A stretch of DNA of 64,000 bases from assembly GCA_050290185.1 (NCBI GenBank), contig JBNKHE010000009.1, positions 96,001 to 160,000 of the forward strand, given 5' to 3'. Shown here piece after piece: positions 20,247 to 64,000 of this stretch; within the stretch, counting starts at the first letter, position 1, and each line of letters starts with the position of its first letter. A program made the position numbers and the translations under genes. The notes beneath the pieces were generated by a model, which made no database searches, had not been told where the DNA came from, and saw only the letters and a list, made by a program, of their open reading frames with translations. The stretch comes from Pontiella sp. (GTDB taxonomy: Bacteria > Verrucomicrobiota > Kiritimatiellia > Kiritimatiellales > Pontiellaceae).

Positions 20247-20249
20247 CCC

Positions 20250-39173: not shown

Positions 39174-39291
39174 TCCGTCTGTTTTTCTGTTTCATGCATG
39201 AATTTAAACACCCGCTTCGCTTCAGGCACAAAGGACTCGAAGCTTAGTGAACTTGGTGTCTTTGTGTTTAATCCATATGCACTATTTCGGA

Positions 39292-39990: not shown

Positions 39991-39997
39991 GATTGGA

Positions 39998-40738: not shown

Positions 40739-40924
40739 GTCGGTGCCGCCAAAAGTATAGCGACCATTCCGCACGTCAAGCTTTCCATACATCGGAATAC
40801 TCAGCCGGGTTCATACTCGCTGGTGGCCTCGCCACCGCTGAGGCTCCGGCGGGTTATTTGTCGGGAAATGTGCGGCCCCGAGGAATGTGCCCGTCTTGAA
40901 ACGGCGGGTTAGACTTTTTACCCG

Positions 40925-42367
40925 TCAGGTCAATGGAAGAACGATGGTGAAGGTGGTGCCACGTTCGGGGTCGGATTGAACCGAAATCTGTCCGCCGTGG
41001 GCTTCGACGAGGCTTTGGACGATGGAGAGTCCGAGCCCGGCGCCGCCTTGCTCGCGGGAGCGGGATTTGTCGACACGGTAGAAGCGTTCGAAAATGTGGG
41101 GAAGATGTTCTTCGGGAATGCCTGTTCCCTGGTCGGCGATATCGATTGCGGCGGTATCGCCGTCTTCTCTCAAGAAAACGCACAGGGGGCATCCCTGGGG
41201 GTTATGCTGCACGGCGTTGGCCAGCAGGTTGGTCACGATCTGGTGGATGCGCTCCCGGTCGACATCGGCGATCAACGGTTTATCCGTGCCTTTAAAATCG
41301 ACGGGATGCTTGGCCGAAAGCAGCGATGCGGAATCGGCGGCATCGGAAAGGACGGTATTCAGGTCGCACCGGGTTTTCGTGAGAGTGTTTCCCTGACTGT
41401 CGATGCGGGTAAGCGTGAGCAGGCTGTTGGCCATGGTTTTCATGCGTTGGCCGGCGCGTAGGCAGGCCTCCAAAACGGTTTTGTATTCCTCCGGGGTGCG
41501 GTCGCGCTTCAGGGCCGCTTGCGTCTGGGCAATGACCACGGCGATGGGCGTGCGTAGTTCGTGGGAGGCGTCGGCGGAAAAACGCTTCTGGGTTTCGATG
41601 GCTTCGTCGAGATGGTCGAAGGTTTCGTTGAGCGTATGGGCCATGCCCGCCAGTTCGTCGGGGGCATCGGATAGTTGAATGCGGCTGCTGCGCTCGCCGG
41701 AGGCAATCTGTTCGGCGATCCGGCTGATCTCCCGGATCGGATGGATCGCTTTGCCGATAATCAGCAGGCCGCCGAAAAAGCCGATGAGCATAATGGACAG
41801 TCCCACCAGGATCAGTTGCAGGCGGGTGTCGGCCATGGTCTTGTTAAGCGGGGCGAGGGGATAGCCCATGACGATCGTAAGTCCGCCCGGCTGTTGCTTG
41901 ACCAGTTCACGGAAACCATCCCGCGAGATAAGATCCTGCTCTTCAGGATGCCGGACATAATCGCTGAAGGAGCGACCAGAGGGAACGGCACCGTAGCGAT
42001 TCCGCTCGGCTCCCCGCGGGTCGATGATCACCACGTACCGGCCTTGCGTTGCGAGTTCATCCAGATACGTTTTCCCGTCCTTGATGATAGGGGAGCGTCC
42101 AGCAGTCTGGCGCATATCGTCTCTGGCAGCTAAGGGGGCGTCCATCGGCATCCGGTCACCGGCCACCATTCGTATCGGTTCATTTCTAGGCGGTGCGACG
42201 GTCGGCAAGACCAGCACCAGTTCCTGTTGCAGCTGTTTGTCGATGCCAGCGATCAGCTCCTTTTTCTTTAGGTGGTAGTGGAGCGGGAGCAGTGTGCCCA
42301 ATACACCGGCGAGCAGCAGCATCTGCCATATTTGCAAGCGCCATTTGATGGATCGGAATACCTTCAA
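40925..42367 (-). CDS. HAMP-containing sensor histidine kinase (TCS 1)
   Basis: Two TM helices, HAMP, FSADASHELRTP, NLLANA, IFERFYRVDKSRSR..GG.GLGLSI; probable TTG start at 42367 next to the regulator stop. Confidence 0.92.
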   Translation of the reverse strand: MKVFRSIKWRLQIWQMLLLAGVLGTLLPLHYHLKKKELIAGIDKQLQQELVLVLPTVAPPRNEPIRMVAGDRMPMDAPLAARDDMRQTAGRSPIIKDGKTYLDELATQGRYVVIIDPRGAERNRYGAVPSGRSFSDYVRHPEEQDLISRDGFRELVKQQPGGLTIVMGYPLAPLNKTMADTRLQLILVGLSIMLIGFFGGLLIIGKAIHPIREISRIAEQIASGERSSRIQLSDAPDELAGMAHTLNETFDHLDEAIETQKRFSADASHELRTPIAVVIAQTQAALKRDRTPEEYKTVLEACLRAGQRMKTMANSLLTLTRIDSQGNTLTKTRCDLNTVLSDAADSASLLSAKHPVDFKGTDKPLIADVDRERIHQIVTNLLANAVQHNPQGCPLCVFLREDGDTAAIDIADQGTGIPEEHLPHIFERFYRVDKSRSREQGGAGLGLSIVQSLVEAHGGQISVQSDPERGTTFTIVLPLT

Positions 42368-42368
42368 G

Positions 42369-43022
42369 TCATCGCTCCATGATATAGCCCTGACCCCGGC
42401 GGGTCTTGATGCTTCCGGCGCCCAGCTTGTGCCGTAGGTTGCAGATATGGACATCGAGCACGTTGGAGAGCGAATCGTCGTTTTCGTCGAACAGGTGCTC
42501 GTACAACTCCGTGCGCGACACCACCCGGTCGGAATGGAGCATGAGGTACTCGAGCAGCGAGTATTCCATGGCGGTCAGCCCCACCGGACTGCCCGCCACC
42601 TGCACGCTTTTCTTCGAGGTATCAATCTCCAGGATGCCGTCCCGCACAACGGTCGTGGACTTGCCGGCCGTACGGCGTATGAGGGCGCGCAGGCGGGCGG
42701 TCAGTTCGGCCATCTCGAAGGGTTTGACCAGGAAATCGTCGGAGCCCAGGTCCAGCCCCTTAACGCGGTCGTCCACCTCACCTCGCGCAGTCAGGATCAG
42801 CACGGGGGTATGCTTTTTCTTGCGGAGCTTTTCGAGCACTTCCCATCCATCCATCTTCGGCATCATGATGTCGAGAATGATGGCGTCGTAGTCCCAGTTG
42901 AGCGCCTTGTACAGCCCTTCTTCACCATCAACTGCCGTATCCAGCGCATAGCCCTCCTCGGCCAGCCCCATCGAAAGCGCCAGCCGCAGATCCGATTCAT
43001 CTTCCACAATCAATAGTCTCAT
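42369..43022 (-). CDS. OmpR-family response regulator (TCS 1)
   Basis: LIVEDE, LDIMMP..DG, LTARG, KPF, wHTH with LTAMEY.LL, SNVLDVHI.NLR.KLG, TRRGQGY. Confidence 0.95.
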   Translation of the reverse strand: MRLLIVEDESDLRLALSMGLAEEGYALDTAVDGEEGLYKALNWDYDAIILDIMMPKMDGWEVLEKLRKKKHTPVLILTARGEVDDRVKGLDLGSDDFLVKPFEMAELTARLRALIRRTAGKSTTVVRDGILEIDTSKKSVQVAGSPVGLTAMEYSLLEYLMLHSDRVVSRTELYEHLFDENDDSLSNVLDVHICNLRHKLGAGSIKTRRGQGYIMER

Positions 43023-43070
43023 CCGTCTTCTCCGATTTCTTCAATGTACGCAAAACCTTCTAGCACGGCG

Positions 43071-43090
43071 AACCTTAAGATTGGATTAAG
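43071..43090 (-). promoter_or_regulatory. Direct-repeat box, copy 1 (upstream of response regulator 1)
   Basis: Minus strand CTTAATCCAATCTTAAGGTT followed by cgccgtgc-TAGAAG. Confidence 0.8.
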
Positions 43091-43115
43091 ATTGTCCGTA
43101 GCTACAGTTTTGTCT

Positions 43116-43185
43116 CTCGCAGAGGCGCGGAGGTCGCAGGGAAATAAATCCTATCCATACTCTGCGACCTCGGCGCCTCAGCGAG
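43116..43185. repeat. 26-bp-arm inverted repeat with 9-nt CGC(A/G)GAG periodicity
   Basis: ctcgcagaggcgcggaggtcgcaggg ... ctctgcgacctcggcgcctcagcgag; sibling at 61484-61555. Confidence 0.75.
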
Positions 43186-43208
43186 GAAAATTCTCTTTCG
43201 GACTGTGG

Positions 43209-43228
43209 CTTCATCCTGGCTTAAGGTT
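43209..43228 (+). promoter_or_regulatory. Direct-repeat box, copy 2 (upstream of the EF-hand gene)
   Basis: CTTCATCCTGGCTTAAGGTT-N8-TAAGGT. Confidence 0.75.
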
Positions 43229-43305
43229 TGGTGCGCTAAGGTACCTGCGTCAATCGGGGAAAGGAACGCGGCCTGTTCCGCGCAGAAGAACGAAGGAGGC
43301 ATACC

Positions 43306-43788
43306 ATGAAGGCACAGCTGGCAACACTAATCACCTTGCTTGTCGCAGGAACCGCAATGGCCCAGGACGAACAGGGAAACCGCCCGCCGCCGCGCGGCGA
43401 AGGTGGATTCATCAAACACTTCGACAAGGACGGGGACGGCAAGATCTCCCAGGATGAATTCAAGGGCCCGGCCGAGCACTTCTCGCACATGGATAAAAAC
43501 GGCGATGGATTCATTAGCGAAGAGGAAGCACCCAAAGGTCCGCCGCCCAAACGAGGTCAGGGCGGTCCGCAGGGCGACGGTGAACCAGATGAAGGGTTCA
43601 TAAAACACTTCGACCAGGATGGGGACGGCCAAGTCTCCCAGGATGAATTCAAGGGGCCGGACGAGCACTTCACGCACATGGATAAAAACGGCGATGGATA
43701 CATTGATGCCAGCGAAGCACCCAAAGGGCCTCCGCCGAATGGAGACGGAGGGAACAGCGGCGATCGGTGTCCTCCACCGAATCAGTAG
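43306..43788 (+). CDS. Secreted EF-hand calcium-binding protein with an internal duplication
   Basis: Signal peptide; four EF loops (DKDGDGKISQDE, DKNGDGFISEEE, DQDGDGQVSQDE, DKNGDGYIDASE); Gly/Pro-rich linkers; RBS AAGGAGG. Confidence 0.88.
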   Translation: MKAQLATLITLLVAGTAMAQDEQGNRPPPRGEGGFIKHFDKDGDGKISQDEFKGPAEHFSHMDKNGDGFISEEEAPKGPPPKRGQGGPQGDGEPDEGFIKHFDQDGDGQVSQDEFKGPDEHFTHMDKNGDGYIDASEAPKGPPPNGDGGNSGDRCPPPNQ

Positions 43789-43809
43789 AGTCGAGGTTTG
43801 AACCCTGGC

Positions 43810-43845
43810 AAAGAGGCGCTCCAAACCGGAGCGCCTCTTTTATTT
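43810..43845. terminator. Bidirectional intrinsic terminator between convergent genes
   Basis: aaagaggcgctcc-aaacc-ggagcgcctctttt. Confidence 0.8.
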
Positions 43846-43854
43846 TTCGGCTTT

Positions 43855-46800
43855 CTATTCGGAGAGCTGGACGCCGATGCGGTAGAAGCTTTTGGTTTCG
43901 GCGGCATGTACGGTGTCGGTCCAGCTGTTTTGCGGATAGACGAGATTGGATACGGTTGCCGACGGGAATCCGTTGGTCAGGTCGTTGTTCCAGTAGACGC
44001 TGTAGGTGCGGCCGGTAACAGCGGTCCAGCTGACGACAAAGCCGGCGGGATTCGTGATGGAGAGGGAGGTGGCGAAGAAGGATGTGCTGTTGGTGGGATC
44101 CATTCCGGCCATATATTCCTCAAAGTTACTTTGTCCGTCGAGGTCGCTGTCCGCTCCGGCGACGGCGTTGGTGGGATCGAGGAAGTAGCGCAGTTCCCAT
44201 TCATCGGGCAGTCCGTCGCCGTCTGAGTCGACAGGGGTGTCGGCGTTGAGCCATATCCGGTTCGCCTGGTTGTAGTTCGCCACGAAGGCATCGATATCTC
44301 CGTCGCCGTCGAGGTCGCCCAGGCTCACACCTCGGCTTTCGGAGCTTCCCAGGCTTTGGCCGTTATCGGAGAAGCTGCCGGAGCCGTCGTTCAGCCAGAC
44401 CCGGTTGGCCTGATCGCGATTGGCCGTAATGGCATCAAGGTCGCCATCGCCGTCGAGGTCGCCCAGTTTCACGTTATAGCTATCGGATGTTCCCAGCGTA
44501 TTTCCGCTGTCGGCAAAGTTTCCGTTTCCGTCGTTCAGCCAGACCCGGTTGGCCTGGTTGTTTGCCACAAAGGCATCGAGATCGCCGTCGCCATCCACAT
44601 CGCCGAGGTTCACGTCAACACTCGATGAGCTGCCCAGACTTTGGCCGCTGTCGGCGAAGTTTCCGTTTCCGTCGTTCAGCCAGACCCGGTTGGCCTGAGC
44701 ACCGTGGTTTGCCTCGAAGGCATCGAGATCGCCGTCACCATCCACATCGCCCAGACTCACGGTCATGCTGTATGAGCTTCCCAGGCTTTGACCGCTGTCG
44801 GAGAAATTGCCGTTGCCGTCGTTGAGCCAGACCCGGTTCGGTTCTGCGAAGTTTGCCACGAAGGCATCAAGATCGCCGTCGCCATCCACGTCGCCTAGGC
44901 TTACATCATTGCTATTGTAGCTTCCCAGGTCTTGGCCGCTGTCGGCAAAGTTTCCGTTTCCGTCGTTCAGCCAGATCCGGTTCCTCTGAGCGAAGGCCGC
45001 CACAAAGGCGTCGAGATCACCATCGCTGTCGAGGTCGCCGAGGCACACGCCAACGCTGGGTGCGTAGCCCAGGCTTTGACTGCTGCTGGTAAAGGTGCCG
45101 CTGCCGTCGTTCAGCCAGACCCGGCTCGGCTGGTCGAAGTTGGCCACGAAGGCGTCGAGATCGCCGTCGCCGTCGAGGTCGCCCAGGCTTACGTCCTGGC
45201 TTTGGGCGCTTCCCAAGCTGTTGCCGCTGTCGGCAAAGCTGCCGCTGCCGCCCAGCGCTCCGACTCTAAACTGGAAGGCGTATGGCGCCGGCATCGGCGC
45301 GCCGTCGCTGCTATAGAGATCCTTTGTCAGAACAACGTTGACGGTTTCTCCCGGTTTGAAGCCGTTGTACGGGTGGAAGGTGATCGTAGGCGTTCCATCG
45401 CCGGAGAACATGCCGAAAAACCGGCCCGAAAGGGAGCCGTTCACGTTGAAGGTCGAGTCGTCGTCGAAGGGCGACTGTGCCATGTTCATGTTGAAGGTTA
45501 CTGCGATGGTGCTTCCGGTTGCAACGCCCAGAGCATTGCTGTCCGGAACATGGGCGGTCACGACGGGTTGGGCCACCACCGTGTAGGTTTCGCCGGTGAA
45601 GTCGGTCGCGGCCGGATTGCCGGCGGCATCGAGTACGCTGTCCAGGGCATCATGGCTGAAGTCGAGGCCCAGCGTGCCGCCGGGGCTCACGCCGTTCACC
45701 GTTACGGAGACCGAGCTGCCGCTGGCAGAGGATACATCGTCGATGGTGCCGGAAGCCGATCCCGTCAGGGCCAGCGCGAAATCGCCCGTCTCGATGTCGG
45801 TTACCGGCTCGCTGAATGTAACCGTGAAGACGACGCTGGTCGACCAGGTCGGATTGGCATCCGCCCGGACGATGGACGTCACGGTGGGTGCCGTATTGTC
45901 GAGCGTATAGGTTTCGTCGGTGGCCGGCTCGCCCGACACTTGCAGCACGTTGCCTGCAAGGTCCGTGATACCCGCTCCCGCATTCAGATCCAGTCCTACG
46001 GTCCCATTGAGAGCAGCCAGATCGCCGCCGCTCAGCGTAAGCGTGTAGGACGCGCCCGAACCGCTCTGTATACCCGTTGCGGTGGTTCCGGTGATCGTAT
46101 AATCCGTCGGGTCCACATACTTGACGGGTTCGTTGAACGTGATATCGAAAACCAGCGTATCGGCAGCCGTCAGGCTTTCCGCCGGTGTGTTGCGGGCAAA
46201 TGCGATCAGCATGGGGGGCGTGTTGTCGACCTCGTAGGTTTCATCCGTCGCCGGCTCGCTGTCCGGCAGGGGGTTGCCTGCGGCGTCCAGGATGTATTGG
46301 CCATCGGTCAGGTCCAGTCCCACGGTTCCGTCGAAGTCGGCCAGATCGCCGCCACTCAGCGTAATCGTGTAGGCCGTGCCGGAACCCGCCAGCACGCCGG
46401 TTGCCGTGGTTCCCGTGATGGTGAAGTCCTCCATGTCCACATACACAACGGGCTCGTCGAATGTGATATCAAAGACCAGTGTGTTGGCCGCGGTCGGGTT
46501 TGTGGATGGCGTTTTTCGGGTAATGCTTATCAAGGTAGGCGGCGTGTCGTCCACGTCCGTAACCGAGACGGTGAATACCTTCTGATACGTCCCGCTGTGT
46601 CCGTCGTCGGTCTGTACCCGGATGCTGTAGTTGGTTTGGGTCTCGTAGTCGAAGCTCGCTGCGGTCTTGAGCTGATCGCCGTCGATGGTGAAGGATGCGT
46701 TGCCGCCGCTTCCCGTGCCTGCAACGAGGCTGTAGGTGTGTGTGTCGTTCGCGTCGGTATCGGCGGTACTGAACGTGCCCACGACTGTGCCGGTGGCCTC

Positions 46801-49800
46801 ATTCTCAGCCACGCTGTTGGTGGAGAGGGTTAAACTGGTGGGCGAATAGTTGTTCAGCCAGACGCGGTTCGCCTGACCATAGTTGGCCACAAAGGCGTCG
46901 ATATCGCCGTCGTCGTCCAGATCGCCCAGACCCGCGCCATAGCTGATGGAGTTCCCCAGGCTGTTGGCGCTGAGCGAGAAGCTTCCGCTGCCGTCATTGA
47001 GCCAGATGCGGTTGGCCTGGCCATAGTTGGCTACAAAGGCATCAAGGTCGCCGTCGCCGTCCACATCAGCCAGGTTTACGCCCACGCTGGTGTTGCCTCC
47101 CAGGCTTTGGCCGCTGTCGGTGAAACTGCCGCTACCGTTGTTCAGCCAGACCCGGTTTGGCTGGGAATAGTTCGCCACAAAGGCATCGAGGTCGCCGTCG
47201 CCATCGAGGTCCCCCAGGCTCACGGCATAACTGCCGGAAGTTCCCAGGGCCTGTCCGCTGTCGGAGAAGGTGCCGTTGCCGTCGTTCAGCCAGACTCGGT
47301 TTGCCTCTCCGTTGTAGTTCGCCACAAAGACGTCAAGATCGCCGTCGCCGTCCACATCGCCCAGGCGCACGTCTTGACTGTATGTGCTGCCCAGGCTTTG
47401 TCCGCTGTCCGAGAAATTGCCGTTGCCATCATTCAACCAGACCTTGTTGCCTTGCCCCTGATTTGCCACAAAAGCGTCAAGGTCGCCGTCGCCATCGAGA
47501 TCGCCCAGGCGCACGGTCATGCTGTATGAGCTTCCCAGGCTTTGGCCACTGTCCGAAAAGGTGCCGTTTCCATCGTTCAGCCAAACCCGGTTTGGCTGGG
47601 AGTAATTCGCCACGAAGGCATCGAGATCGCCGTCGCCATCCACGTCGCCGAGGCTTGCGCCATAACTATTGTAAGTTCCCAGAGCTTGTCCGTGGTCGGC
47701 GAAGCTGCCATGGCCGTCATTCAGCCACACCCGGTTCCCCTGGGCGGCATTTGCCACAAAGGCGTCCAGATCGCCATCGCCGTCCAGGTCGCCCAGGTTC
47801 GCACTCACGCTCTGTGAGCTTCCCAGACTGTTGGTCGTGGCGGCGAAGAGGCCGCTTCCGCTTGGGGCTCCGACCACGAATTCGAAGGCATACGGGGCCA
47901 CCGGATCCGCGCCCAGGGAGCTCTGAAGGCCCGTCGTCAGAACCACGCTAACGGTCTCGCCCGGCCTGAAGCCGTTGGTGGGTTGGTAGGTGATCGTGGG
48001 CGTTCCGTCGCCGGAGAACATGCCCTGAATTTTGCCTGAAAGGGATCCGTTCACATTGAAGGTCGAGCCATCGTCAAAGGACGATTGTGCCATATCCACA
48101 TTGAAGGTTACTGCGACGGTGCTGCCGGTCGCGACATCCAGTGCGTTGTTATCCGGTACATGGGAGGTCACGACGGGGTGGGCCGTGACGGTATACGTCT
48201 CGCCGGTAAAGTCGGCCGTTGCCGGGTGGCCGAGGGCGTCCAGCACGCTGTCCAAGGCACTGGGATCGAAATTGAGGCCCAGCGTACCATAGGGGCTCAC
48301 ACCATTCACCGTGACCGTGACCGAGCTACCGCTGGCGGCGGATACGCTTTCGATGGTGCCGGAGGCCGATCCCGTCAGAGCCAGCGCAAAATCACCCGGT
48401 TCGATGTCGCTCACCGGCTCGCTGAACATGACTGTGAAGACGACGCTGGTTGACCAGGTCGGATCCGCATCCGCCCGCACGATAGACGTTACGGTGGGTG
48501 CTGTATTGTCGAGCGTATAGGTCTCGTCGGTGGCCGGTTCGCCGGCCGGCAGGGCATTGCCGACGGTGTCCGTGATGTTCTGGCCGGCGGCCAGATTCAG
48601 GCCTGCTGTGCCGGTAAGGTCCGCCAGATCACCGCCGCTCACCGTGAGGGTGTAGGCCGTGCCGGATCCCGCCAGCACGCCCGTGGCGGTGGTGCCGGTG
48701 ATGGTGAAGTCCGAGGCGTCTACGTTCACGACGGGTTCGTCGAAGGTGATGTCAAAGACCAGCGAGTCGGCATCGGTCGGATTCGTGGCCGGTGTGTTGC
48801 GGGCAAATGCGGTCAGGGTGGGGACCGTGTTGTCGAGCTGATAGGTTTCATCCGTTGACGGCTCGCCCGCCGGCAGGGCGTTGCCCGCGAGGTCTGTAAT
48901 ATTCTGTTCGGAGTTCAGGTTCAGTCCCACGGTTCCGTTGAGACTGGACAGATCGCCGCCGCTCACCGTGAGGGTGTAGGCCGTCCCGGAGCCTGCCAAC
49001 ACGCCGGTTGCGGTGGTGCCGGTGATGGTAAAGGCGGCGGCATCCACGTTGGTTACGGGTTCGTTGAACGTGATGTCGAAGACCAGCGTATCGGCGTTGA
49101 CCGGACTCGTGGCCGGTGTGTTCCGGATAAAGCCCGTCAAGGTCGGTGGAATCTCGTCCACGTCCGTGATCGTGACGGTGAACGCCTCTTCGTACGTCCC
49201 TCCATGGCCGTCGGCGGTCTGCACGCGGATACTGTAGTTGGTCTTGGTTTCATAGTCAAAGCTTGCTGCGGTTTTGAGCTGGTCGCCGTTGATGGTGAAG
49301 GAACCATTGTCGTCGCTGCCCGTGCCCGCGACGAGGCTGTAGGTAGGCGTGTCGCCGCTATCGGCGTCGGTGGTGCTGAACGTACCCACAACCGTTCCGA
49401 TGGCCTGATTCTCAGCCACGCTGCCGGAGGATAAGTTCACATCGGTCGGCAAGCTGTTATTCAGCCATACCCGGTTCGCCTGAGTGTAGTTCGCCACAAA
49501 GGCATCGAGGTCGCCGTCGCCGTCTACATCTCCCAAACCCGCGCAACGGCTCTTGGCGCTTCCCAGATTTTGGCCGCTGTCGGTGAAGGTTCCACTGCCG
49601 TTATTCAGCCACGCCCGGTTCGCTTGAGAGCCGTTTATCACGAAAGCGTCCAGGTCGCCATCGCCGTCCACATCGCCCAGGTTCACGGCAAAGCTGTTGT
49701 AGCTTCCCAGGTTTTGGCCGCTGTCGGAGAAACTGCCGCTGCCGTTGTTCAGCCAGATCTGGTTCCCCTGACCGTAGACCGCCGCGAAGGCGTCAAGATC

Positions 49801-50892: not shown

Positions 50893-51245
50893 TTGTTATT
50901 CTCCATTCATAAAATTGACGCATGGGCGAAAATTTCAGCCAATTCGTAATTTGGGGCAAGCCCGTCTAAACGCGCGATAGCGTGTATCTGCGCGCTGCAG
51001 AAAAGCGCTGCCGTGGTCACGCGGAGCACGGAATTCATTTGTTCATTTCAAGGTTGTGATGATTCCCCTTGTAGGTTGAATTAAGCACGATCGATCTTTA
51101 ATAAATCACCTATTCCAAGGTAAGTCAATTGATCACATTTGTGCAGTTTCAACCTTGCTGTCATTTGCAAGAAGGCAGGAGCACAGGAAATGCACATGAT
51201 TTAGAGATCTATGGCGTAGCCGTTCCGCTGCTTGTTTTTAGACAC

Positions 51246-51265
51246 CTTAATCTTCGCTTAAGGTT
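51246..51265 (+). promoter_or_regulatory. Direct-repeat box, copy 3
   Basis: CTTAATCTTCGCTTAAGGTT-cgccgtgc-TAGCTT; CTTAAGGTTCGCCGTGCTAG is identical to copy 1. Confidence 0.8.
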
Positions 51266-51311
51266 CGCCGTGCTAGCTTCCGTGCATGGTGAATGGAAAA
51301 AGGAGTCGAAA

Positions 51312-56162: not shown

Positions 56163-56181
56163 CCGGCGGACATTTGCGATG

Positions 56182-56221
56182 ACCACTTCTGTGGGAAAGG
56201 CTCCGCAGGAGTGGTGGTTTT
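56182..56221 (+). terminator. Probable intrinsic terminator
   Basis: accacttctgtgg ... ccgcaggagtggt stem (with G-U pairs) followed by ggtttt. Confidence 0.5.
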
Positions 56222-56236
56222 CGTGCGCTCTTCATC

Positions 56237-56256
56237 CTTAATCCCAACTTAAGGTT
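56237..56256 (+). promoter_or_regulatory. Direct-repeat box, copy 4
   Basis: CTTAATCCCAACTTAAGGTT-N8-TAGGGT. Confidence 0.8.
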
Positions 56257-56301
56257 GCAGAGGTTAGGGTGGCTGAAATTTAAAACAAAAGGAGACACTG
56301 C

Positions 56302-57024
56302 GTGAAAACAAAATTGAAATCAGCAGGTAGACGCGGGTTGTCGTCGGGAGCGAAAATCGTTGTTCTGGGTTGTGTATTGGCCGCGTCATCGTCACGCGCA
56401 TCACTTATTTCGCAAACGAGTACGCCGCTGGATGAATCCATTCTCGTTTCCGGGGCATTTTCGGATCCGCTGGCGGATGCACAGACCGTTGACGTGCTGT
56501 TCAACGACTATGCGTTTACGTTCGATCAGTTTGATCCGTCCCTCGGAACGCTGACCGATATCCGCATTTCCTACTATTTCAGCTATACGGCGTCGGCCAC
56601 GGCAAATTCCCAACCCAATGAGGCGGACAAATATCTATCTCTTTCGTTGCACTATAATGTTCAGTTCGAGGGGCCGGGAGGTTCTTTCGATGGTGATGGT
56701 AACGGGAGCAGCATAGGTTCCGGTACCGCCGGAGAAAGTCTGACGACTTCGGCAACGATCTCCGAGAATGATGCGTCTGTCTTCTATGATCCAATCTTTA
56801 CGGATGTTCAAGGAACGGGAACCTATAATGTATCTGTGGCATTCATGGATGCCGATCAGAACGCCACCGTTCACGGTTACTTTACGGATTATGAGATCAA
56901 GCGCGACGCGGGCGCTTACTTTCAGATTGATTATGAATACGAGGCCGTGCCGGAGCCGGCGGCTATTGCGCTCATATCCATGGCGGGTTGCGGGATGCTG
57001 GTCGCCAGACGCTTCATGATTTGA
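56302..57024 (+). CDS. PEP-CTERM protein with a choice-of-anchor-E-like domain
   Basis: Signal peptide, FDQFDPSLGTL, C-terminal YEYEAVPEPAAIALI followed by TM and RR; RBS AAGGAG. Confidence 0.82.
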   Translation: MKTKLKSAGRRGLSSGAKIVVLGCVLAASSSRASLISQTSTPLDESILVSGAFSDPLADAQTVDVLFNDYAFTFDQFDPSLGTLTDIRISYYFSYTASATANSQPNEADKYLSLSLHYNVQFEGPGGSFDGDGNGSSIGSGTAGESLTTSATISENDASVFYDPIFTDVQGTGTYNVSVAFMDADQNATVHGYFTDYEIKRDAGAYFQIDYEYEAVPEPAAIALISMAGCGMLVARRFMI

Positions 57025-57071
57025 ATTCCCGGCACTGCATAATGCATTTTTTCGCCACGCATTCCTCTTCG

Positions 57072-57091
57072 CTTAATCCTGGCTTAAGGTT
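57072..57091 (+). promoter_or_regulatory. Direct-repeat box, copy 5
   Basis: CTTAATCCTGGCTTAAGGTT-N8-CAAGGT; one mismatch from copy 2. Confidence 0.8.
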
Positions 57092-57134
57092 GCGTGTGGC
57101 AAGGTGCCCGCAATTCGACGAAGGAGTATGGATT

Positions 57135-60100
57135 ATGAATATTTGTATGGAATCGGGTTTGTTTAACAGGTGCAGGTTCAATAAGAGCGTCTGTGCGCTA
57201 ATGCTGGGCATGCTGTTTGCGGGTGAGACCGCCTGGAGCTATCCCTACGACGATTCACTCGAAGATTTGCCCGCTTCGGCCGAACAACATGGATACGAGA
57301 GCCGCACCGAGGGCGTGGTTAATACCTACAACATCCCGGTGAGCAACTACCCTCCAGTCGTCCAATTCAATTCGATCCGAGGCGGCAGGGGGGGGAATGC
57401 CAAAGTCAGCCCGGATGTGGGGCAGGATTTTGAATCGTGGGGCGGGAAGGGCGCGAATGTCACGGCGGAGTTCGTGATCGATCCCTACGCGGACGAGGCA
57501 TTGCGTCCCGGCGGCGAGCTGCGCTTCATCCTCGGAAGCAAGGGCGAAAGACGCTTCAGAAACGACGCGGCCGGCGGCGGGGGCGGCGGCGGGACGGCGG
57601 TGCTCTACCGGCCGCCGGAAGAAGGTGCCGAATGGATCATCCTAGCGGTCGCCGGTGGTGGCGGTGGTGCGGGAGGCGCCGCTATCCCTTCTGACTATTC
57701 TCGTGATGGCTATGATGCCGAGACCGGCACGGCAGGTGGCGATGGTCGTTCCCATAGCGATTCCGGCGGAACCAATGGAGGGAGTGGAACTGGATTGACT
57801 AGCGGCGATGCGATTTTCGTAGGCGGCGGAGGCGGGGCCTTCGGCGGGGGCAGCGACGGCCCTTACGGCGAGAAGGGGGGAAGCTCCGGTGGTGCCGGGG
57901 GATCCCGCAGTGCGGACGGTGGCTTCGGCTTCGGTGGCGGTGGCGCAGGCGACGCACGGTCCGCCACACTTTATCATGACCCCGATGGCTATGGCGGTGG
58001 GGGCGGCGGTTACTCGGGAGGCGGTGCCGCGGATAGCGGCGGTGGGGGCGGGGGCGGCAGCTTCCTGCACGCTTGGGCCATCGACGGTTCGATCAGCGTT
58101 CCGTCAAGCTCCGCCTTCGACAACGGATTCGTCAACTTCACTGCTTTGCCTGACGTTGGCTCAGGTTCCCTGCCCGGTCCGGTGATCGAGCTCTACGGCG
58201 ATGCGACCTCGATCACAATAAACGACTACGATATTTCGGACTACACGGATTTCACCGTCACCGCCGAGGATGTTTATGGAAACACCGCCAGCGTGCAGTC
58301 CACCCTCCCTAACTTCAACGGCGCGGGCACCTACACCGCGAGCTTCACCGCCACCGACCAGTTTGGAACGCAAACCAGCGTGACGCAGACGATCGAGGTG
58401 AGCTACAACAAGCCGACCTTCGCGATCCAGGGCGACGTTACAGCCGATGAAGACTCCGGCGAATACTCGGATTACGGCTTCGCTTATGATTTCAATGCCA
58501 ACGATGAGGGCCAGTCGCTGGATTCCTATGAAGTGACCAACGACAACAACGCACTTTTCGCCACGCAACCCGCCGTCAACAACAGCGGAAGTCTGACCTT
58601 TACCCCCGCCGACAATGCCCACGGATCGGCAGTCGTGACGATTGTTGCAATCGATAATCCGGATGATCCAACCAATGGAACGTCGGAGCCGGTGACGTTC
58701 ACCATCACGGTCAACAGCGTGGATGATCCGCCAACCGGCTTTTCTCTCTCGGCCACTTCCATCAATGAGAACCTGACCGTGGTCGGCACGATCTCGGCCA
58801 CCGATCCTTTTGGAGGTACAGTCAGCTATGCCATCACTGGAGGGGGGGACAGGGAATTATTCTCCCTGGATGCTGAAAGCGGCGAGCTTTCATTCATCTC
58901 AGCACCCGATTACGAGTTGCCGAAAGATTTCGACCATAACAATAGTTTTTGGATTCGGGTCACCGTGACCGGCAGCGATGGTTCGAAAGACAGGGGTTAT
59001 CAGTTGTTCGTGCTCGACGTGGCGGGGCCGTCCGATCTGGGTATCTCCAGCCAGATGATCGCGGAAAACACCTCCGTGGTCGGAACCGTCAGTGCAACGA
59101 ACAACCCCAATGGCGATGCGCTGGCCTATGCCCTGGCGGGCGGTGCCGACGAAGCGTTTTTCCAGATCGATTCCGCTTCGGGCGCGCTGTCGTTTAGCAA
59201 CGCGCCGAACTACGAGGTGCCGTTCGACGCCGACAGCAACAACACCTATGTCGTCATGGTTCAGGCGACCGGCGAGGAAGGATCCGCAACCAATACCTTC
59301 GAAATCGGGGTAACGGACGCCAACGACGCCCCGACAGAACCCGTGCTCGACAGCAAGTATTGCTATGAGAACACCACCTATGTCGGTACGGCTTCGTCCA
59401 CCGATGAAGATAGCGATACGCTCGAATACCAGATCGTGGGTGGCTACGACCAGGATCTGTTCCTGATCGATCCGGCCTCGGGCGCCATTTCCTTCATCAA
59501 CCCGCCGGACTACGAGAATCCGTTGGACCATAACGGCGACAACAAATACAAGCTTCAGGTTCGCGCCACGGATGGAACCGCCGATTCAACCTTCGCGCAC
59601 TTCACCATCATTGTCGTGGATGTGGATGAGGTGCCGGGCATCGGTATCACGACCACCAACCAGACCGTGGCATATGGCGTGACGGAGATCTCGATCATCG
59701 GAACCAACAATGAATGGGTCGTCGGAAACCTGGTTTGGAGCAACGCCTTGACCACATCCAGCGGCACGGTGGCGGTTTCGGGAACCAGCTTCTCGATTCC
59801 CTCCATTGCGCTCGATAGGGGCACAAACGTGATTACCGTCACCGGTACCAATTCGGTGGGATCTTCGGCAAGCGATTCAGTGACCATCGTTCGCGAATCG
59901 ACTCCGATCTATGACGGCGTGATCTATGTGAATGCGAGTACACCGTCGACTGCCAATGATCAGGACGGAACCTCCTGGAGCACGGCCTTCGAAGATCTTC
60001 AGGATGCACTGGCCGTTGCGACGACACAGGAAATCTGGGTGGCCGCGGGCATCTATTATCCCGACGAAGCGGCGGCGGGATTTGCCGGCGTGACGGACGG

Positions 60101-61457
60101 AGACACCAGTTTGCTGTTTGAATTACCGGACGATGCCCCGGTCTACGGGGGATTTGCTGGGACGGAATCCAGCCGGGGCGAACGCGATCCGGCCTCCAAC
60201 ATCACCGTGTTGAGCGGTGATATCGACCAGAACGATACAACCGACGGTTTCGGGGTGCTTCCATCCGCGGATGGAAATATGGTCGGCACGAACTCGGCTG
60301 TTGTAGTACAGGGTTCTTCGGACCTGAGCTCGCTGCTGGACGGCTTTACGATTACCGGCGGAGATGGCGGCCCGGCTCCCATAACGAGTGGAGGTCGCTA
60401 CCGGAACTGCATCGTCCAGGGAAACTATGGAACCTACAGCGGGGGTCGCTTGGGACTGGGCGAACCGCTGTCGCTGGAAGAATGCGACTTCATCAACAAT
60501 GTGGGCGACGGCGTGGGGGCCGTGGATGTGTACAGTGCTACGGACATCACCATCGTTTCCTGCCGTTTCCTAGGTAACCGTTCGATAAATAACAGCTCGC
60601 ATTCGGCCGGAGCCCTGATACTTGGAGCCCAGGATATTGGATTGACCAATTGTCTGTTCTCGGGCAACAGCGGGGCACTTAACGGGGCCATCCGGTTCCG
60701 GCAAAGCGGCTCGCTTCAACTGGTCAACTGCACGGTTGTCGGAAACTCCGCCAGCGATACCAACGCGACCGTTAGCGGGGCCGGTGGATTGTCCGCTGAC
60801 ACGAATGCCGCCGTTTCGGTCTATAACTCGATCATCTGGAACAACAGCGCGCCGGAAAACGACAATGCCTTCGGTATCGATGCGCAGGTGGCCAGTCTGG
60901 TTGGCGGCGGAAGTACGGCCGATGGCAATCTGGACGAGGATCCGGTGTTTGCGGACAACGACCATCGTCTGGATTTCACTTCGCCCTGCATCAACGCCGG
61001 AAGCAATGCGTTGGTTAACGTTTCGACCGATCTCGACGGCAACGCCCGCATCTACGACAGCATCGTCGACATGGGCTGCTACGAAGCAATCGACGACGGC
61101 GCGGACTCCGACGGCGACACCCTGACCGACTACGCCGAAGGCGTGCACTATGGCTCCGACCCCGCTCTGGCCGACACCGACGGCGACGGCTCCAACGACG
61201 GCGACGAAGCCTTCATCGGCTCCGACCTGCTGTCGGCATCTTCCGTCTTCAGGTCCGCCATTCAGAACATCGGCTCCGGCAACGTGCAAATCAGCTGGCC
61301 ACAGTTTAATTCCGGCCTTCGCTACACGCTGACAGGATGCACCAATCTCGTGGAAGGAAGTTGGTTCTATGTCGGTTCCACCACATCGAGCAACCTGACC
61401 GATGCCGTTGACGGCGACAGTGTCTTTTACCGGGTCGAGGTGAGCGAAAACAAATAG
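57135..61457 (+). CDS. Large secreted protein: glycine-rich (ALK/LTK-like) domain, Ig and cadherin repeats, beta-helix/choice-of-anchor-Q-like region, TSP3-like repeats and C-terminal FYR domain
   Basis: VAGGGGGA, GFGFGGGG, GGGGGYSGG, GGGGGSF; three cadherin units GG.D..LF.ID..SG.L.F...PDYE.P.D; start after AAGGAG at 57121. Confidence 0.8.
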   Translation: MNICMESGLFNRCRFNKSVCALMLGMLFAGETAWSYPYDDSLEDLPASAEQHGYESRTEGVVNTYNIPVSNYPPVVQFNSIRGGRGGNAKVSPDVGQDFESWGGKGANVTAEFVIDPYADEALRPGGELRFILGSKGERRFRNDAAGGGGGGGTAVLYRPPEEGAEWIILAVAGGGGGAGGAAIPSDYSRDGYDAETGTAGGDGRSHSDSGGTNGGSGTGLTSGDAIFVGGGGGAFGGGSDGPYGEKGGSSGGAGGSRSADGGFGFGGGGAGDARSATLYHDPDGYGGGGGGYSGGGAADSGGGGGGGSFLHAWAIDGSISVPSSSAFDNGFVNFTALPDVGSGSLPGPVIELYGDATSITINDYDISDYTDFTVTAEDVYGNTASVQSTLPNFNGAGTYTASFTATDQFGTQTSVTQTIEVSYNKPTFAIQGDVTADEDSGEYSDYGFAYDFNANDEGQSLDSYEVTNDNNALFATQPAVNNSGSLTFTPADNAHGSAVVTIVAIDNPDDPTNGTSEPVTFTITVNSVDDPPTGFSLSATSINENLTVVGTISATDPFGGTVSYAITGGGDRELFSLDAESGELSFISAPDYELPKDFDHNNSFWIRVTVTGSDGSKDRGYQLFVLDVAGPSDLGISSQMIAENTSVVGTVSATNNPNGDALAYALAGGADEAFFQIDSASGALSFSNAPNYEVPFDADSNNTYVVMVQATGEEGSATNTFEIGVTDANDAPTEPVLDSKYCYENTTYVGTASSTDEDSDTLEYQIVGGYDQDLFLIDPASGAISFINPPDYENPLDHNGDNKYKLQVRATDGTADSTFAHFTIIVVDVDEVPGIGITTTNQTVAYGVTEISIIGTNNEWVVGNLVWSNALTTSSGTVAVSGTSFSIPSIALDRGTNVITVTGTNSVGSSASDSVTIVRESTPIYDGVIYVNASTPSTANDQDGTSWSTAFEDLQDALAVATTQEIWVAAGIYYPDEAAAGFAGVTDGDTSLLFELPDDAPVYGGFAGTESSRGERDPASNITVLSGDIDQNDTTDGFGVLPSADGNMVGTNSAVVVQGSSDLSSLLDGFTITGGDGGPAPITSGGRYRNCIVQGNYGTYSGGRLGLGEPLSLEECDFINNVGDGVGAVDVYSATDITIVSCRFLGNRSINNSSHSAGALILGAQDIGLTNCLFSGNSGALNGAIRFRQSGSLQLVNCTVVGNSASDTNATVSGAGGLSADTNAAVSVYNSIIWNNSAPENDNAFGIDAQVASLVGGGSTADGNLDEDPVFADNDHRLDFTSPCINAGSNALVNVSTDLDGNARIYDSIVDMGCYEAIDDGADSDGDTLTDYAEGVHYGSDPALADTDGDGSNDGDEAFIGSDLLSASSVFRSAIQNIGSGNVQISWPQFNSGLRYTLTGCTNLVEGSWFYVGSTTSSNLTDAVDGDSVFYRVEVSENK

Positions 61458-61483
61458 GGAGGATTCCGGTCGTTGGGTCATCA

Positions 61484-61555
61484 CCTCGCAGAGACGCGGA
61501 GAGCGCAGAGCAACTTCTGTGTATGAATCTTTGCGCCCTCCGCGCCTCTGCGAGG
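61484..61555. repeat. Inverted repeat of the CGCAGAG family between convergent genes
   Basis: cctcgcagagacgcggagagcgcagag ... ctttgcgccctccgcgcctctgcgagg. Confidence 0.75.
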
Positions 61556-61597
61556 AATATAGACACGCCTATTTGTTCATTCGTGGTCGTGGAACTT

Positions 61598-63100
61598 CTA
61601 GCTGTTCAACGGTAGCCGAATCGTGAATCTGGTTTCCACGCGAGGGGTGCTTGCTACGGAAAGGGTGCCGCCGTGGGCGGTAACGATGGCGTGGCAGATG
61701 GCGAGGCCGAGGCCGATGTTGGTGTGGTTCCGGTTTTTCCGGGCCGTGTGATCGTGGAAAAACCGGTCGAACAGTTTGTCGAGGTTGTCGCTCTTGATCC
61801 CTGTTCCGTTGTCGATCACTTCGATAACGGCGGCGTCGGGTTCCTGCCGTGTTCGCAGGACGATTTCGACGGGATCGGGGTTGTGCTGCAACGCGTTGTT
61901 TACGAGGTTGGTGATCACCTGCTCCATGCGGAAGGGATCGCAATAAACCCGCTTTCCGCGCAGCTCCGTTTTCAACTGACCGCCCTGTGCCGTAACATGG
62001 GGCTGCAGATCATCGGCCAGACTTTGGATCAGGGCATCCAGCGGCAGGTCTTCGCATTCCAGTTTGCACATACCGGAATCGTAGCGTGACAGGTCGAGCA
62101 GATCGGTCACGATACGGTTGAGCTTTTCCGCCGAACGTTGGCAGCTTTCCAGGGTTTCCCGGTATTCCCCGGGTGTCCGTTCCTTTTTCAGTCCGAGGGC
62201 AATCCTGCCGATGAGTGCCGTCAGGGGATTTTTCAGTTCGTGCGAGGCATCGGCGGTGAAGCGGACCTGCTGTGCGAACAGCGACTCCAGTTTCGCAAAG
62301 TTTTCATTCAGATGCCGGGTCAGCTGGGTCAGCTCGAGGGTGTTGCCTCGTTTGGTTTTCGGAATGCGGCGGTCCAGCTTGCCGGCGGCAATTTCCTCCG
62401 TGGTCCGATAGATCGGTTTCAGGGGTCTGAGTGAATAGCCGACCAGAATCCCGCCGGTCGTGGTGCCGATCAGGAAGATCAGGAAACACACGCCGGCGAT
62501 TTCCCATTTCAGCAGGGCCATTTCCTTGTTCAGTTCCTGTAGGTCGAACCCTACAACGGTCTGTTCCCTCGGATTGATGTTGAGCATTTCACGGAATCGG
62601 CCGCTGCGCGTACGCGCCCAGTAGCCTTCCGAATTGTTTGGTGGCGGCTGTAGGTCGGGGGCTGTGGTGGATTTGTAAAGGAGTGTCCGGTCAAACCGGT
62701 CCCAGACCAAGACGTAGAATCCGAGATAGGCATACTTCGTCTCGGCCAGATCAGAGGGTTTGATCCATGGTTCCGGTTGGTTTGGATCGGATTGTTGGCC
62801 GGGCGGAGCAAGCTGCGACAGCCTGCTCCATCCTTCAGGTAGACGGTCGTGATCATCCTGGTCGAACGGTCTTGAGTGGCGGGGGGGGCGTCCGGGAGGG
62901 GGGCCTCCCGGCGGCCCCTCATGGTGTTGCTCCTCCACTTGGTGCACGATAGGATGAATGGTCGAATTGAGAACGAAATCGTATTCGGTTAGACGGTGGA
63001 ACCGCTCGTTGTAATAATAACCGATCCCCACGACCGTTAGCACGGCGGCGAGTACCGCCGCATGCCAGAGCTGGATTTTCCATTTGAGAGAGAGGTTCAT
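61598..63100 (-). CDS. HAMP-containing sensor histidine kinase (TCS 2)
   Basis: SLKWKIQLWH start similar to kinase 1, Pro-rich periplasmic segment, FTADASHELKNP, NLVNNA, GLGLAIC. Confidence 0.92.
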   Translation of the reverse strand: MNLSLKWKIQLWHAAVLAAVLTVVGIGYYYNERFHRLTEYDFVLNSTIHPIVHQVEEQHHEGPPGGPPPGRPPRHSRPFDQDDHDRLPEGWSRLSQLAPPGQQSDPNQPEPWIKPSDLAETKYAYLGFYVLVWDRFDRTLLYKSTTAPDLQPPPNNSEGYWARTRSGRFREMLNINPREQTVVGFDLQELNKEMALLKWEIAGVCFLIFLIGTTTGGILVGYSLRPLKPIYRTTEEIAAGKLDRRIPKTKRGNTLELTQLTRHLNENFAKLESLFAQQVRFTADASHELKNPLTALIGRIALGLKKERTPGEYRETLESCQRSAEKLNRIVTDLLDLSRYDSGMCKLECEDLPLDALIQSLADDLQPHVTAQGGQLKTELRGKRVYCDPFRMEQVITNLVNNALQHNPDPVEIVLRTRQEPDAAVIEVIDNGTGIKSDNLDKLFDRFFHDHTARKNRNHTNIGLGLAICHAIVTAHGGTLSVASTPRVETRFTIRLPLNS

Positions 63101-63118
63101 TTCGCTTTGCCTCATGAA

Positions 63119-63146
63119 GGCACTGGGCATTAGGCACTAGGCATCA
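63119..63146. repeat. Tandem 7-nt repeat (GGCAYYR x4)
   Basis: ggcactg ggcatta ggcacta ggcatca. Confidence 0.65.
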
Positions 63147-63207
63147 GTAACAACCTGTCCAGACCTGCACCTGTTTCTTTCTCCACTATTGCCTCTTGCC
63201 TGCATTC

Positions 63208-63873
63208 CTACGCTCCTCGGGCCGTAGGAATGATATACCCCTGTCCTCTGCGATTCTGCAGGAATTCTTTGCCCAGTTTTTTACGAATATTGTAGATGTG
63301 CACATCGAGCACGTTGGAAAACTCCTCCTCGTCTTCAATCGACAGGTTTTCGCAGAGCGTGGTGCGGCTGACCAGGGTTCCCGCCCGTCGCACCAGCACT
63401 TCAAGAATGCTGTATTGCGCCGGCGAAAGTTTTACCTCCTCCCCATCCTTAAATACCTGATGCGCCGCCGTATCAATGGTGACCCGTCCGATTTCAATTT
63501 CATTGCTGGCAATGCCCGTGGAGCGCCGTACCAATGCGCGCACGCGGGCAATCAGCTCATTCGGATTAAATGGCTTAACCAGGTAGTCGTCCGCCCCGCC
63601 ATCCAACCCACGGATCCGGTCATCCACCTCGCCCTTCGCCGTCAGCATCAGCACCGGGGTGGTTTTTTCCTTCCGCAGTTCGGAAAGCACCTGCCAGCCG
63701 TCCTTTTCCGGCAGTTGTATATCGAGCAGGATTACATCAAATTCCCACTCAAGCGCCAGATAGAGCCCTTCCGCCCCGTTCTCGCTGGACTCGACGTTGC
63801 AGCCTACTTCGGCCAGCACCTGCACCACGGAATTGCGAACCTCAAAATCGTCCTCCACCACCAATATTTTCAT
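63208..63873 (-). CDS. OmpR-family response regulator (TCS 2)
   Basis: MKILVVEDD, LDIQLP..DG, GADDYLVKPF, SNVLDVHIYNIRKKLG, RRGQGY. Confidence 0.95.
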   Translation of the reverse strand: MKILVVEDDFEVRNSVVQVLAEVGCNVESSENGAEGLYLALEWEFDVILLDIQLPEKDGWQVLSELRKEKTTPVLMLTAKGEVDDRIRGLDGGADDYLVKPFNPNELIARVRALVRRSTGIASNEIEIGRVTIDTAAHQVFKDGEEVKLSPAQYSILEVLVRRAGTLVSRTTLCENLSIEDEEEFSNVLDVHIYNIRKKLGKEFLQNRRGQGYIIPTARGA

Positions 63874-63911
63874 GCCGGCATTTATAAGCATTCCCCATCC
63901 ATAACACAGGT

Positions 63912-63931
63912 ACTATTAATAAAAACTTAAT
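63912..63931 (-). promoter_or_regulatory. Degenerate direct-repeat box, copy 6 (upstream of response regulator 2)
   Basis: Minus strand ATTAAGTTTTTATTAATAGT-N8-TATGGA; same 11-bp TTAA period and the same spacing. Confidence 0.5.
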
Positions 63932-64000
63932 GGCCTATAGGGCGCCGTATTAATTTGCGGTTCAGGAAGGCCGTTAAGATTTCATTCATACTGTATCTGC

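Follow-up and report, generated by a model that had tools for sequence, protein, structure and literature searches.

Five direct-repeat promoter boxes and a predicted autoregulated OmpR-family system of secreted calcium-motif genes in Pontiella sp.

A 64,000-nt stretch of Pontiella sp. DNA (the window; host genome G000, 3.58 Mb in 163 contigs) contains, at 40925..63931, a cluster of genes for secreted and surface proteins together with two paralogous regulator-kinase pairs, RR1-HK1 and RR2-HK2. Five copies of a direct-repeat box lie in this cluster, each facing a gene at a fixed spacing from a -10-like hexamer, and in related genomes the box co-occurs with RR1 orthologues and precedes recurring target families. 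These sequence features support well an autoregulated OmpR-family system whose putative PmrA-type repeat lies over the -35 region of individually promoted genes for secreted calcium-motif proteins, and the five boxes likely belong to RR1. On balance we favor the reading that RR1-HK1 uses these boxes to switch on its own operon together with a group of genes for secreted calcium-motif proteins, likely in response to cation-linked envelope stress. We are highly confident of the box and promoter architecture, consider activation by RR1 probable, and regard a cation- or metal-linked signal as an even call.

Promoter boxes and their geometry

The original prediction listed five exact copies of the box with their strands, an orientation toward the downstream genes, and a constant 8 nt to a -10-like hexamer, and each of these points holds. 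Its pattern matches the window exactly at the five RR1-type sites of Table 1, where 0 matches are expected; the pattern appears in 0 of 100 shuffles of the window, and a scan of the 3.58-Mb genome returns five exact copies, every one inside the window. All five boxes face a start codon, which follows 29-63 nt behind the hexamer. The 8-nt gap between box and hexamer is kept at every site, and three of the five hexamers fit TAnnnT, the exceptions being the 43071 site, without the last T, and the 57072 site, without the first. The predicted likeness to a PmrA/BasR-type box is likewise borne out, as four of the five sites equal the QseB sequence CTTAA-N6-CTTAA with its 11-bp period, and these four are its only occurrences in the genome. 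Allowing up to three mismatches adds to the window only the reverse reading of one site and does not recover 63912-63931, a site before RR2 that is discussed below.

The same geometry is found among 58 distinct sites from loci of RR1-bearing genomes, picked with a box-only pattern. The second hexamer position at the 8-nt gap is A in all 58; TAnnnT occurs at this gap in 37 of them and at any other gap of 3-15 nt, or on the mirror side, in at most one. TG precedes the hexamer in most sites (T 37/58, G 48/58), and box positions 6-11, the place of a -35 hexamer, show no TTGACA-like consensus among the 58. The first half-site ends in T or C in 58/58, as the picking pattern required, and in T at 5/5 window sites. 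A metagenome scan for box plus hexamer matched at least 121 stretches; all metagenome results given here rest on 80 of these, with 78 distinct sites. An ORF-opening ATG stands 6 nt behind the hexamer in 14/78, 7 nt in 8/78, 8-9 nt in 7/78 and 2-5 nt in 0/78. For leaderless mRNAs starting at +1, an ATG 6-9 nt behind the hexamer is the expected spacing. By sequence criteria, then, the hexamer behaves as a putative -10 element and, because the observed ATG spacing is that of a leaderless +1, the box would span about -40 to -21. QseB binds CTTAA-N6-CTTAA flanking the -35 (PMC5053249; this and the other papers are cited for selected passages), and the first half-site of PmrA is the location of the -35 element (PMC4660055).

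A matrix scan, proposed as a check alongside the original prediction, was run on the host genome with two matrices; one was built from the five window sites, and the other was trained on 50 sites of other genomes. The five window sites come out on top and one unlinked member is added, C13:33497, a close copy recovered by both matrices; with the other-genome matrix these six score 29.7-37.3 and the next match 19.7. Behind the sixth box and its hexamer sits a 463-aa stand-alone Lcl_C/EF-hand gene (C13:33561; stretch C13:33497-34952). Its neighbors are argG-like and lysA-like genes, and in genome G047 the locus equivalent to C13:33497 is occupied by the entire RR1-HK1/sulfotransferase-like/Lcl_C cluster. 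At C4:304707-304900 lies a decayed, frameshifted 5' fragment (~200 bp) of an Lcl_C/EF-hand gene, its box spacer one base short. Weaker matrix matches in the host genome were dismissed. They are C4:307078, where the hexamer A is absent and a proper downstream gene is missing, C10:128730, and matches that only read the quasi-palindromic boxes on the reverse strand. We also ruled out a dispersed repeat or transposon end, because the spacer and flanking bases differ between sites and conservation is confined to the protein-facing positions; viral contigs gave 0 matches to the box-plus-hexamer pattern. Short palindromic repeats occur at window 43110-43190, between the divergent boxes, and at 61480-61560, behind the cadherin gene; their core motif has 8 matches in the host genome.

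Regulators and ownership of the boxes

RR1 and RR2 both score above cut-off for PF00072 and PF00486, and a HAMP-HisKA-HATPase kinase adjoins each, the HAMP domain of HK2 falling just under its cut-off. The regulators are 50% identical and the kinases 30%. The nearest named relatives of RR1 are Verrucomicrobiota records (54-62% identity), and quick trees, the kind used throughout, place RR1 and RR2 in one Verrucomicrobiota clade with support 91. Alignment of RR1 with K. pneumoniae PmrA shows that Asn188, His193, Asn196 and Arg210 are kept, all of which are among the DNA-contact residues of PmrA (PMC4660055, PMC3973317). The PmrA equivalog model gives 211.7 and 200.1 bits for the two regulators against a cut-off of 330, the QseB model gives RR1 178.6 against 345, and the QseC model gives HK1 127.3 against 475. 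The best match of HK1 is to the heavy-metal models TIGR01386/TIGR01387 (269.3 versus 292.55; RR1 206.9 versus 279.2), and with both scores under the cut-offs, membership of the heavy-metal CusRS/CzcRS systems is ruled out.

A full RR1 orthologue is encoded in 11 of the 88 other genomes of the order (71-79% identity), and in 11/11 full-length orthologues the box stands directly before RR1 and faces it. A looser pattern matches 34 times in these 11 genomes, gives 10 single matches in the other 77 and 0 in G067; as a control, the reversed pattern matches 36 times over all 89. Two of the 10 RR1-negative genomes with a match carry an RR1 cut by a contig end. G067 encodes an RR2-like protein only, with neither an RR1 orthologue nor an RR1-type box. 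The originally proposed autoregulated pair, acting on separately promoted calcium-motif genes, is thus strengthened by the RR1 site in 11/11 orthologues and by the fixed geometry, whereas its single regulon for all boxes has to be given up: the five boxes go with RR1, and a separate box with other targets goes with RR2.

The site at 63912-63931 had been described as a degenerate copy of the box. It shares only TTAA-N7-TTAA with the RR1 type, and RR2-type and RR1-type sites differ at box positions 1, 6, 12 and 17; it is better described as a conserved box type in its own right, with distinct targets that lie past the window end. In a sample of 400 genomes of the class, another close RR2 occurs in G067 only (85% identical), where both 63912-63931 and 63973-63992 are conserved, and in both genomes the ATGs follow the hexamers by 6-7 nt. 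The 1157-aa surface-protein gene addressed by the second of these sites starts 14 bases beyond the window end, its ATG 7 nt behind the hexamer. A third RR2-type candidate precedes related secreted proteins at C9:178233 and G067 C27:32424 (E 3e-14). The RR2 pattern matches 5 times in the host and 6 times in G067, three in each being these sites and the rest looking like chance; matches on C1 and C5 were dismissed, the TA hexamer being absent. RR2/HK2 is a divergent paralogue that probably reads its own box and drives other large surface proteins. Nor do the regulator pairs bound the island, as had been supposed, since RR2 is divergent from the 1157-aa surface gene and more surface genes follow over ~30 kb. 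Past the window, C9:160014-190000 holds further large surface-protein genes (LRR/Ig, M60-like peptidase, FG-GAP, DUF11), a run broken by an apparent type I restriction-modification cluster. In Prosthecobacter-type regulators (L036-L039, L191), Arg replaces His193 in the recognition helix and the repeat before the start is changed, possibly a third box type.

RR1 and RR2 share the recognition-helix core N-V-L-D-V-H-I-x-N and differ at the position of PmrA His195 (Table 1), a residue proposed as a base-specificity determinant of PmrA (PMC3973317). In a covariation test that left box position 17 out of the score, a box was obtained at 45 of 66 regulator loci. Cys or Ser at the His195 position accompanies G17 in 27/27 loci, and Phe or Tyr accompanies T17 only in 16/18, two of the 18 rows being duplicates; in the remaining 2/18, T17 stands in the stronger site and G only in the weaker reverse reading. 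In the metagenome loci, where G17 was part of the selection, Ser is present in 7/7 readable clade regulators. The residue label changes twice on the tree, and a comparison of two origins with one gives p-AU 0.27 (33 thinned rows). Because the label changes just twice and one origin is possible, the apparent co-variation of this residue with base 17 is a lead that reflects one or two evolutionary events and concerns the downstream half-site only. RR1 and RR2, paralogues with different boxes, form a natural pair for which this residue is a candidate specificity determinant.

Island genes and the wider target set

The boxes had been said to stand before nearly every gene of the island. Five of seven transcription units are boxed, because the 2345-aa FG-GAP/Ig gene, which covers 30% of the 40925..63931 stretch, has no box (best upstream score below 0) and is for that reason left out of the regulon. 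Upstream of it, at window 50950-51200, is an AT-rich 350-bp region with short inverted motifs, where a different regulator may act.

Table 1. Features of the island, with positions in the 64,000-nt window.
Feature	Position	Strand	Remarks
HK1	40925..42367	-	HAMP-HisKA-HATPase sensor kinase; predicted TTG start at 42367, directly behind RR1 stop
RR1	42369..43022	-	OmpR-family regulator; putative reader of the five boxes; Cys at PmrA His195 position
RR1-type box 43071-43090 + hexamer 43057-43062	43057..43090	-	RR1-HK1 operon; predicted autoregulation
RR1-type box + hexamer 43237-43242	43209..43242	+	EF-hand gene
EF-hand protein	43306..43788	+	Secreted, 160 aa, four EF-hand loops, Pro/Gly-rich linkers; conserved regulon member
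FG-GAP/Ig/cadherin surface protein	43855..50892	-	2345 aa; inside cluster, no box
RR1-type box + hexamer 51274-51279	51246..51279	+	Kept in G063
Sulfotransferase-like gene	51312..56162	+	1616 aa, secreted; arylsulfotransferase-like propeller, two Lcl_C (DUF1566), choice-of-anchor Q; conserved regulon member
RR1-type box + hexamer 56265-56270	56237..56270	+	Before PEP-CTERM-like gene
PEP-CTERM-like/choice-of-anchor E protein	56302..57024	+	Found only in host genome among 89
RR1-type box + hexamer 57100-57105	57072..57105	+	Before cadherin gene
Cadherin gene	57135..61457	+	1440 aa; Gly-rich/cadherin/choice-of-anchor Q surface protein
HK2	61598..63100	-	Paralogous sensor kinase, predicted start; 95% identical copy in G063
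RR2	63208..63891	-	ATG 6 nt behind hexamer, predicted leaderless; Tyr at PmrA His195 position
RR2-type box 63912-63931 + hexamer 63898-63903	63898..63931	-	RR2-HK2; R-TTAAG-N5-R-TTMAT type; conserved in G067
Second RR2-type box	63973..63992	+	Points at 1157-aa surface-protein gene; conserved in G067

Pfam and NCBIfam agree with most of the gene labels first given, namely EF-hand, arylsulfotransferase-like with Lcl_C, cadherin, and two OmpR/HAMP-HisKA pairs; for 56302..57024, however, PEP-CTERM families score under their cut-offs and choice-of-anchor E passes. The EF-loop pattern occurs in only 2 ORFs genome-wide, both box-led. Lanmodulin identity is ruled out for the window EF-hand protein, as the LanM model gives 34.4 bits against a cut-off of 135 and Pro at loop position 2, a feature of lanmodulin, is present in 0/4 loops. 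The AssT family PF05935 passes for the sulfotransferase-like protein, and its propeller gives a weak profile match to 3ELQ/4P04 (E ~0.015). Of the AssT catalytic residues (His252, His356, His436, Arg374) the His positions align, and Arg374 is replaced by His here and is Arg in G047; a single-sequence search of the propeller domain against the PDB gave 0 matches. Box-led homologues of this protein are present in G047 and G063. The listed ORFs overrun the likely starts of the sulfotransferase-like and cadherin genes given in Table 1.

The C-terminal 700 aa encoded by the cadherin gene are 50% identical to the product of the preceding large gene, and its N-terminal Gly-rich part is present only in the host among the 89 genomes. 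G063 has 94-95% DNA identity to the host, and there the sulfotransferase-like gene joins HK2 directly and window 56165-61578, with the PEP-CTERM-like and cadherin genes and two boxes, is missing. Because the block is missing from G063, and its PEP-CTERM-like gene and the Gly-rich part of its cadherin gene are found in no other of the 89 genomes, it is a lineage-specific gain in the host or a loss in G063. GPPP-type Pro/Gly-rich low-complexity stretches are common to HK1, HK2, the EF-hand protein and many other targets.

The predicted regulon does not coincide with the island, since it extends to an unlinked gene (C13:33561) and leaves out the largest one; nor is it local, since the same box and geometry recur across Verrucomicrobiota. 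In relatives from the order the box leads EF-hand, Lcl_C/EF-hand and sulfotransferase-like/Lcl_C proteins, lamin-tail/CotH kinases, a DUF4956-VTC-CotH operon, small TPR proteins and secreted proteins without a family, often in rows with one box each. In Verrucomicrobiae it leads YHYH, VTC and EF-hand proteins and outer-membrane efflux operons ending in a two-component pair; in Luteolibacter/Haloferula-type loci (L019, L020, L023-L025, L027, L029, L034, L035) it heads an efflux operon of ~4.8 kb. In several relatives a box-led operon recurs beside EF-hand genes (L112:11539-14212, L113, L114, L151, L153, L157; not seen in the window); its products are a dicluster ferredoxin of 71 aa, a membrane protein resembling ferric reductases and a secreted-type flavoprotein. 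The 74 distinct ORFs behind the metagenome sites comprise 8 single receiver domains, 6 YHYH, 5 EF-hand and 3 intradiol-dioxygenase-like proteins, 2 each of metallophosphoesterase, di-haem peroxidase (one with MbnP), secretin and lamin-tail/CotH, 1 each of Lcl_C, LTXXQ, full regulator and galactosidase, 37 without a family, and 3 probable chance matches. The stand-alone EF-hand protein is the most constant target, from Kiritimatiellia through to the metagenome sites. Single-domain receivers are frequent among the targets, several of them predicted to be leaderless (L206, L208, L216, L243, L245, L247, L252, L274), and may be feedback phosphate sinks.

Elsewhere in the window lie a mevalonate-pathway cluster at 17024-21182 (FMN-dependent isomerase-like gene, HMG-CoA synthase, two GHMP kinases), two tandem secreted trypsin-like peptidase genes at 8643-11139 and, at 2357-8618 and 31122-40792, futalosine-type menaquinone genes with UbiD together with molybdenum cofactor genes, a fused NirB/NirD-type nitrite reductase and modABC.

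Signal, alternative explanations and known systems

In the mechanism that we propose, HK1 would detect envelope stress, most likely cation-linked, and phosphorylated RR1 would bind the five direct-repeat boxes. By analogy with PmrA, QseB and PhoB, a head-to-tail RR1 dimer would cover about -40 to -21, flanking the place of the missing -35 hexamer, and would recruit sigma-70 polymerase to extended -10 promoters, so activating the RR1-HK1 operon and the secreted calcium-motif protein set. Judged from its EF-hand, Lcl_C, CotH kinase, VTC, YHYH and efflux members, the output may buffer or sequester divalent cations and phosphate at the envelope. The structural model of HK1 has two membrane helices around a PAS-like periplasmic domain with a disordered Pro-rich insert (residues ~61-92); its feature look-alikes are 2CSK_N, CusS and PhoQ sensors, and a fold search with the full model returned kinase cores only. 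The acidic iron-binding motif of PmrB-type sensors (ExxE) occurs 0 times in HK1 and HK2, and a comparison of 27 sensors shows no conservation of it. What favors a cation-linked stress is instead target content and precedent. In P. aeruginosa, efhP, encoding a periplasmic EF-hand protein, depends on CarR/BqsR (PMC11559002), which binds TTAAG-N6-TTAAG (PMC13522522), and efhP is also the top BfmR target (PMC8025907); metal-induced pairs of Caulobacter activate mostly secreted unknowns and efflux (PMC8963506).

Several observations weigh against this interpretation. None of ExxE, EYRDD or a His/Cys/Met set is conserved over the 27 sensors in the periplasmic part of HK1, which leaves direct metal sensing unsupported, and TolC-type efflux, secretin, LTXXQ, single receivers and the ferredoxin-flavoprotein operon fit general envelope stress equally well. 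An extended -10 promoter can work without an activator. G032, a single contig that is 98% complete, has the box, the hexamer and an Lcl_C gene but no RR1 orthologue, its best regulator being at 43%, and G023 and G034, though fragmented, resemble it; the link between box and RR1 is therefore not one-to-one. At 21/66 regulator loci there is no box above threshold, and related genomes are not independent samples. In P. aeruginosa, repression or mixed control accompanied BqsR boxes that overlap predicted -10 and -35 elements (PMC13522522).

The main rival keeps the same regulator and box and takes the signal to be general envelope or periplasmic folding damage (Cpx/Bae/DbfRS-like), the calcium motifs being merely structural. 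It accounts for a sensor without a conserved metal-ligand motif and for targets such as LTXXQ (Spy/CpxP-family), secretins and outer-membrane efflux operons, and it has a precedent in V. cholerae DbfRS, called a BqsS orthologue, which ignores iron and answers membrane integrity (PMC12714742). We nevertheless consider it unlikely, since no other target is as constant as the stand-alone EF-hand protein, MbnP/di-haem peroxidase, metallophosphoesterase, VTC and CotH are found repeatedly, and the 74 metagenome targets scanned (37 without a Pfam family) include no DegP-type protease or Dsb/Ppi foldase. A BfmRS-like switch for surface attachment or biofilm, building an adhesive calcium-cross-linked matrix in line with the matrix remodelling originally proposed, would suit the 3/6 host-genome targets that are large or PEP-CTERM-like surface proteins, and DUF4956-polyphosphate polymerase-CotH adjoins Gram-positive pel clusters (10.1101/768473; PMC2879425). 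That switch is improbable given that the two most adhesin-like targets occur in the host alone among 89 genomes and are missing from G063, that the biggest adhesin-like gene has no box, and that no polysaccharide synthase stands behind any box in the target listings of relatives and metagenome.

Two further explanations concern the regulator itself. RR1 could be a repressor whose box, over the -35 region, blocks otherwise active extended -10 promoters, as the TG before most hexamers and the negative control linked to BqsR boxes that overlap promoter elements (PMC13522522) would allow. Exact spacing and orientation are needless for a repressor, yet the gap is always 8 nt, no TTGACA-like consensus lies where the -35 hexamer would be, and QseB (PMC5053249) and PmrA (PMC4660055) activate from this position, all of which makes repression very improbable. 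Control of the five boxes by RR2, or by both regulators jointly, is the least probable of the alternatives: the common recognition-helix core and TTAA-N7-TTAA make cross-binding possible, but in 11 genomes RR1 and the box occur and no RR2 orthologue was found, the G067 RR2 occurs without an RR1-type box, and the differences that set RR2 sites apart are conserved.

Beyond the activation of secreted calcium-motif genes by RR1 that we prefer, a phylum-wide cation-sequestration program can be imagined, although we regard it as doubtful. In such a program one regulator clade would co-induce EF-hand, polyphosphate polymerase, CotH, YHYH and Lcl_C proteins; Ca2+ and toxic metals would be trapped as surface phosphate complexes; paralogues would be insulated by one recognition-helix residue (small for G17, aromatic for T17); and new surface genes would be plugged in, each with its own box.

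The mechanism is textbook, and the regulon itself is apparently undescribed; the searchable literature (open-access and bioRxiv main texts) holds no description of it, including under its target families combined with two-component or metal terms. In Verrucomicrobiota, a phylum with little mapped regulation, it ties the YHYH, Lcl_C/DUF1566, DUF4956-VTC, non-spore CotH, stand-alone EF-hand and intradiol-dioxygenase-like families to one regulator and promoter type. With these families joined under one regulator, one reporter screen could be enough to find a condition for every family, and the Luteolibacter and Haloferula loci L029, L034 and L035 provide a predicted inducible promoter for named cultured hosts.

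Among known systems, QseBC and PmrAB (BasRS) of Enterobacteriaceae and Pasteurellaceae are alike in being OmpR-family pairs with an 11-bp-period TTAA repeat flanking the -35, autoinduction, the base readers Asn188, Asn196 and Arg210, and a gene for a small periplasmic protein alongside, often divergent (ygiW). They are unlike the present system in that RR1 and HK1 score far under the PmrA and QseB cut-offs, HK1 has no acidic motifs, the small partner here is an EF-hand protein rather than an OB-fold, and no lipid A modification targets are seen; for QseBC in particular, 4/5 window sites match its box exactly and the EYRDD motif is absent from the sensor here. BfmRS of P. aeruginosa likewise regulates its own genes and induces a periplasmic EF-hand protein more than any other target, but its box, TACAA-N3-GATACA, is unrelated (PMC8025907). 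UzcRS/UrpRS of Caulobacter, an analogy by regulon type only, are metal-induced and mainly activate secreted or membrane unknowns, efflux pumps and phosphate-releasing enzymes (PMC8963506). The cotH-polyphosphate polymerase-DUF4956 block of Gram-positive pel loci comprises the same three families as a box-led operon in G060, whereas no pel genes are seen here and the block is absent from the window. BqsRS/CarSR of P. aeruginosa, as far as its published description is drawn on here, resembles the system in a TTAAG-N6-TTAAG-type box, a link to Fe(II) and Ca and the dependence of the EF-hand gene efhP; this likeness is judged from the box and that description. It differs in that the last base of the first half-site here is T or C and the second half-site continues as GGT, in that no PepSY partner is seen, and in that RR1 and RR2 form a Verrucomicrobiota clade. 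The system thus would work like QseB, PmrA and BqsR while it falls short of the family criteria applied for each of them, and it is likely a PmrA/QseB/BqsR-like autoregulated activator system for which we infer binding, activation and a cation-linked envelope-stress signal.

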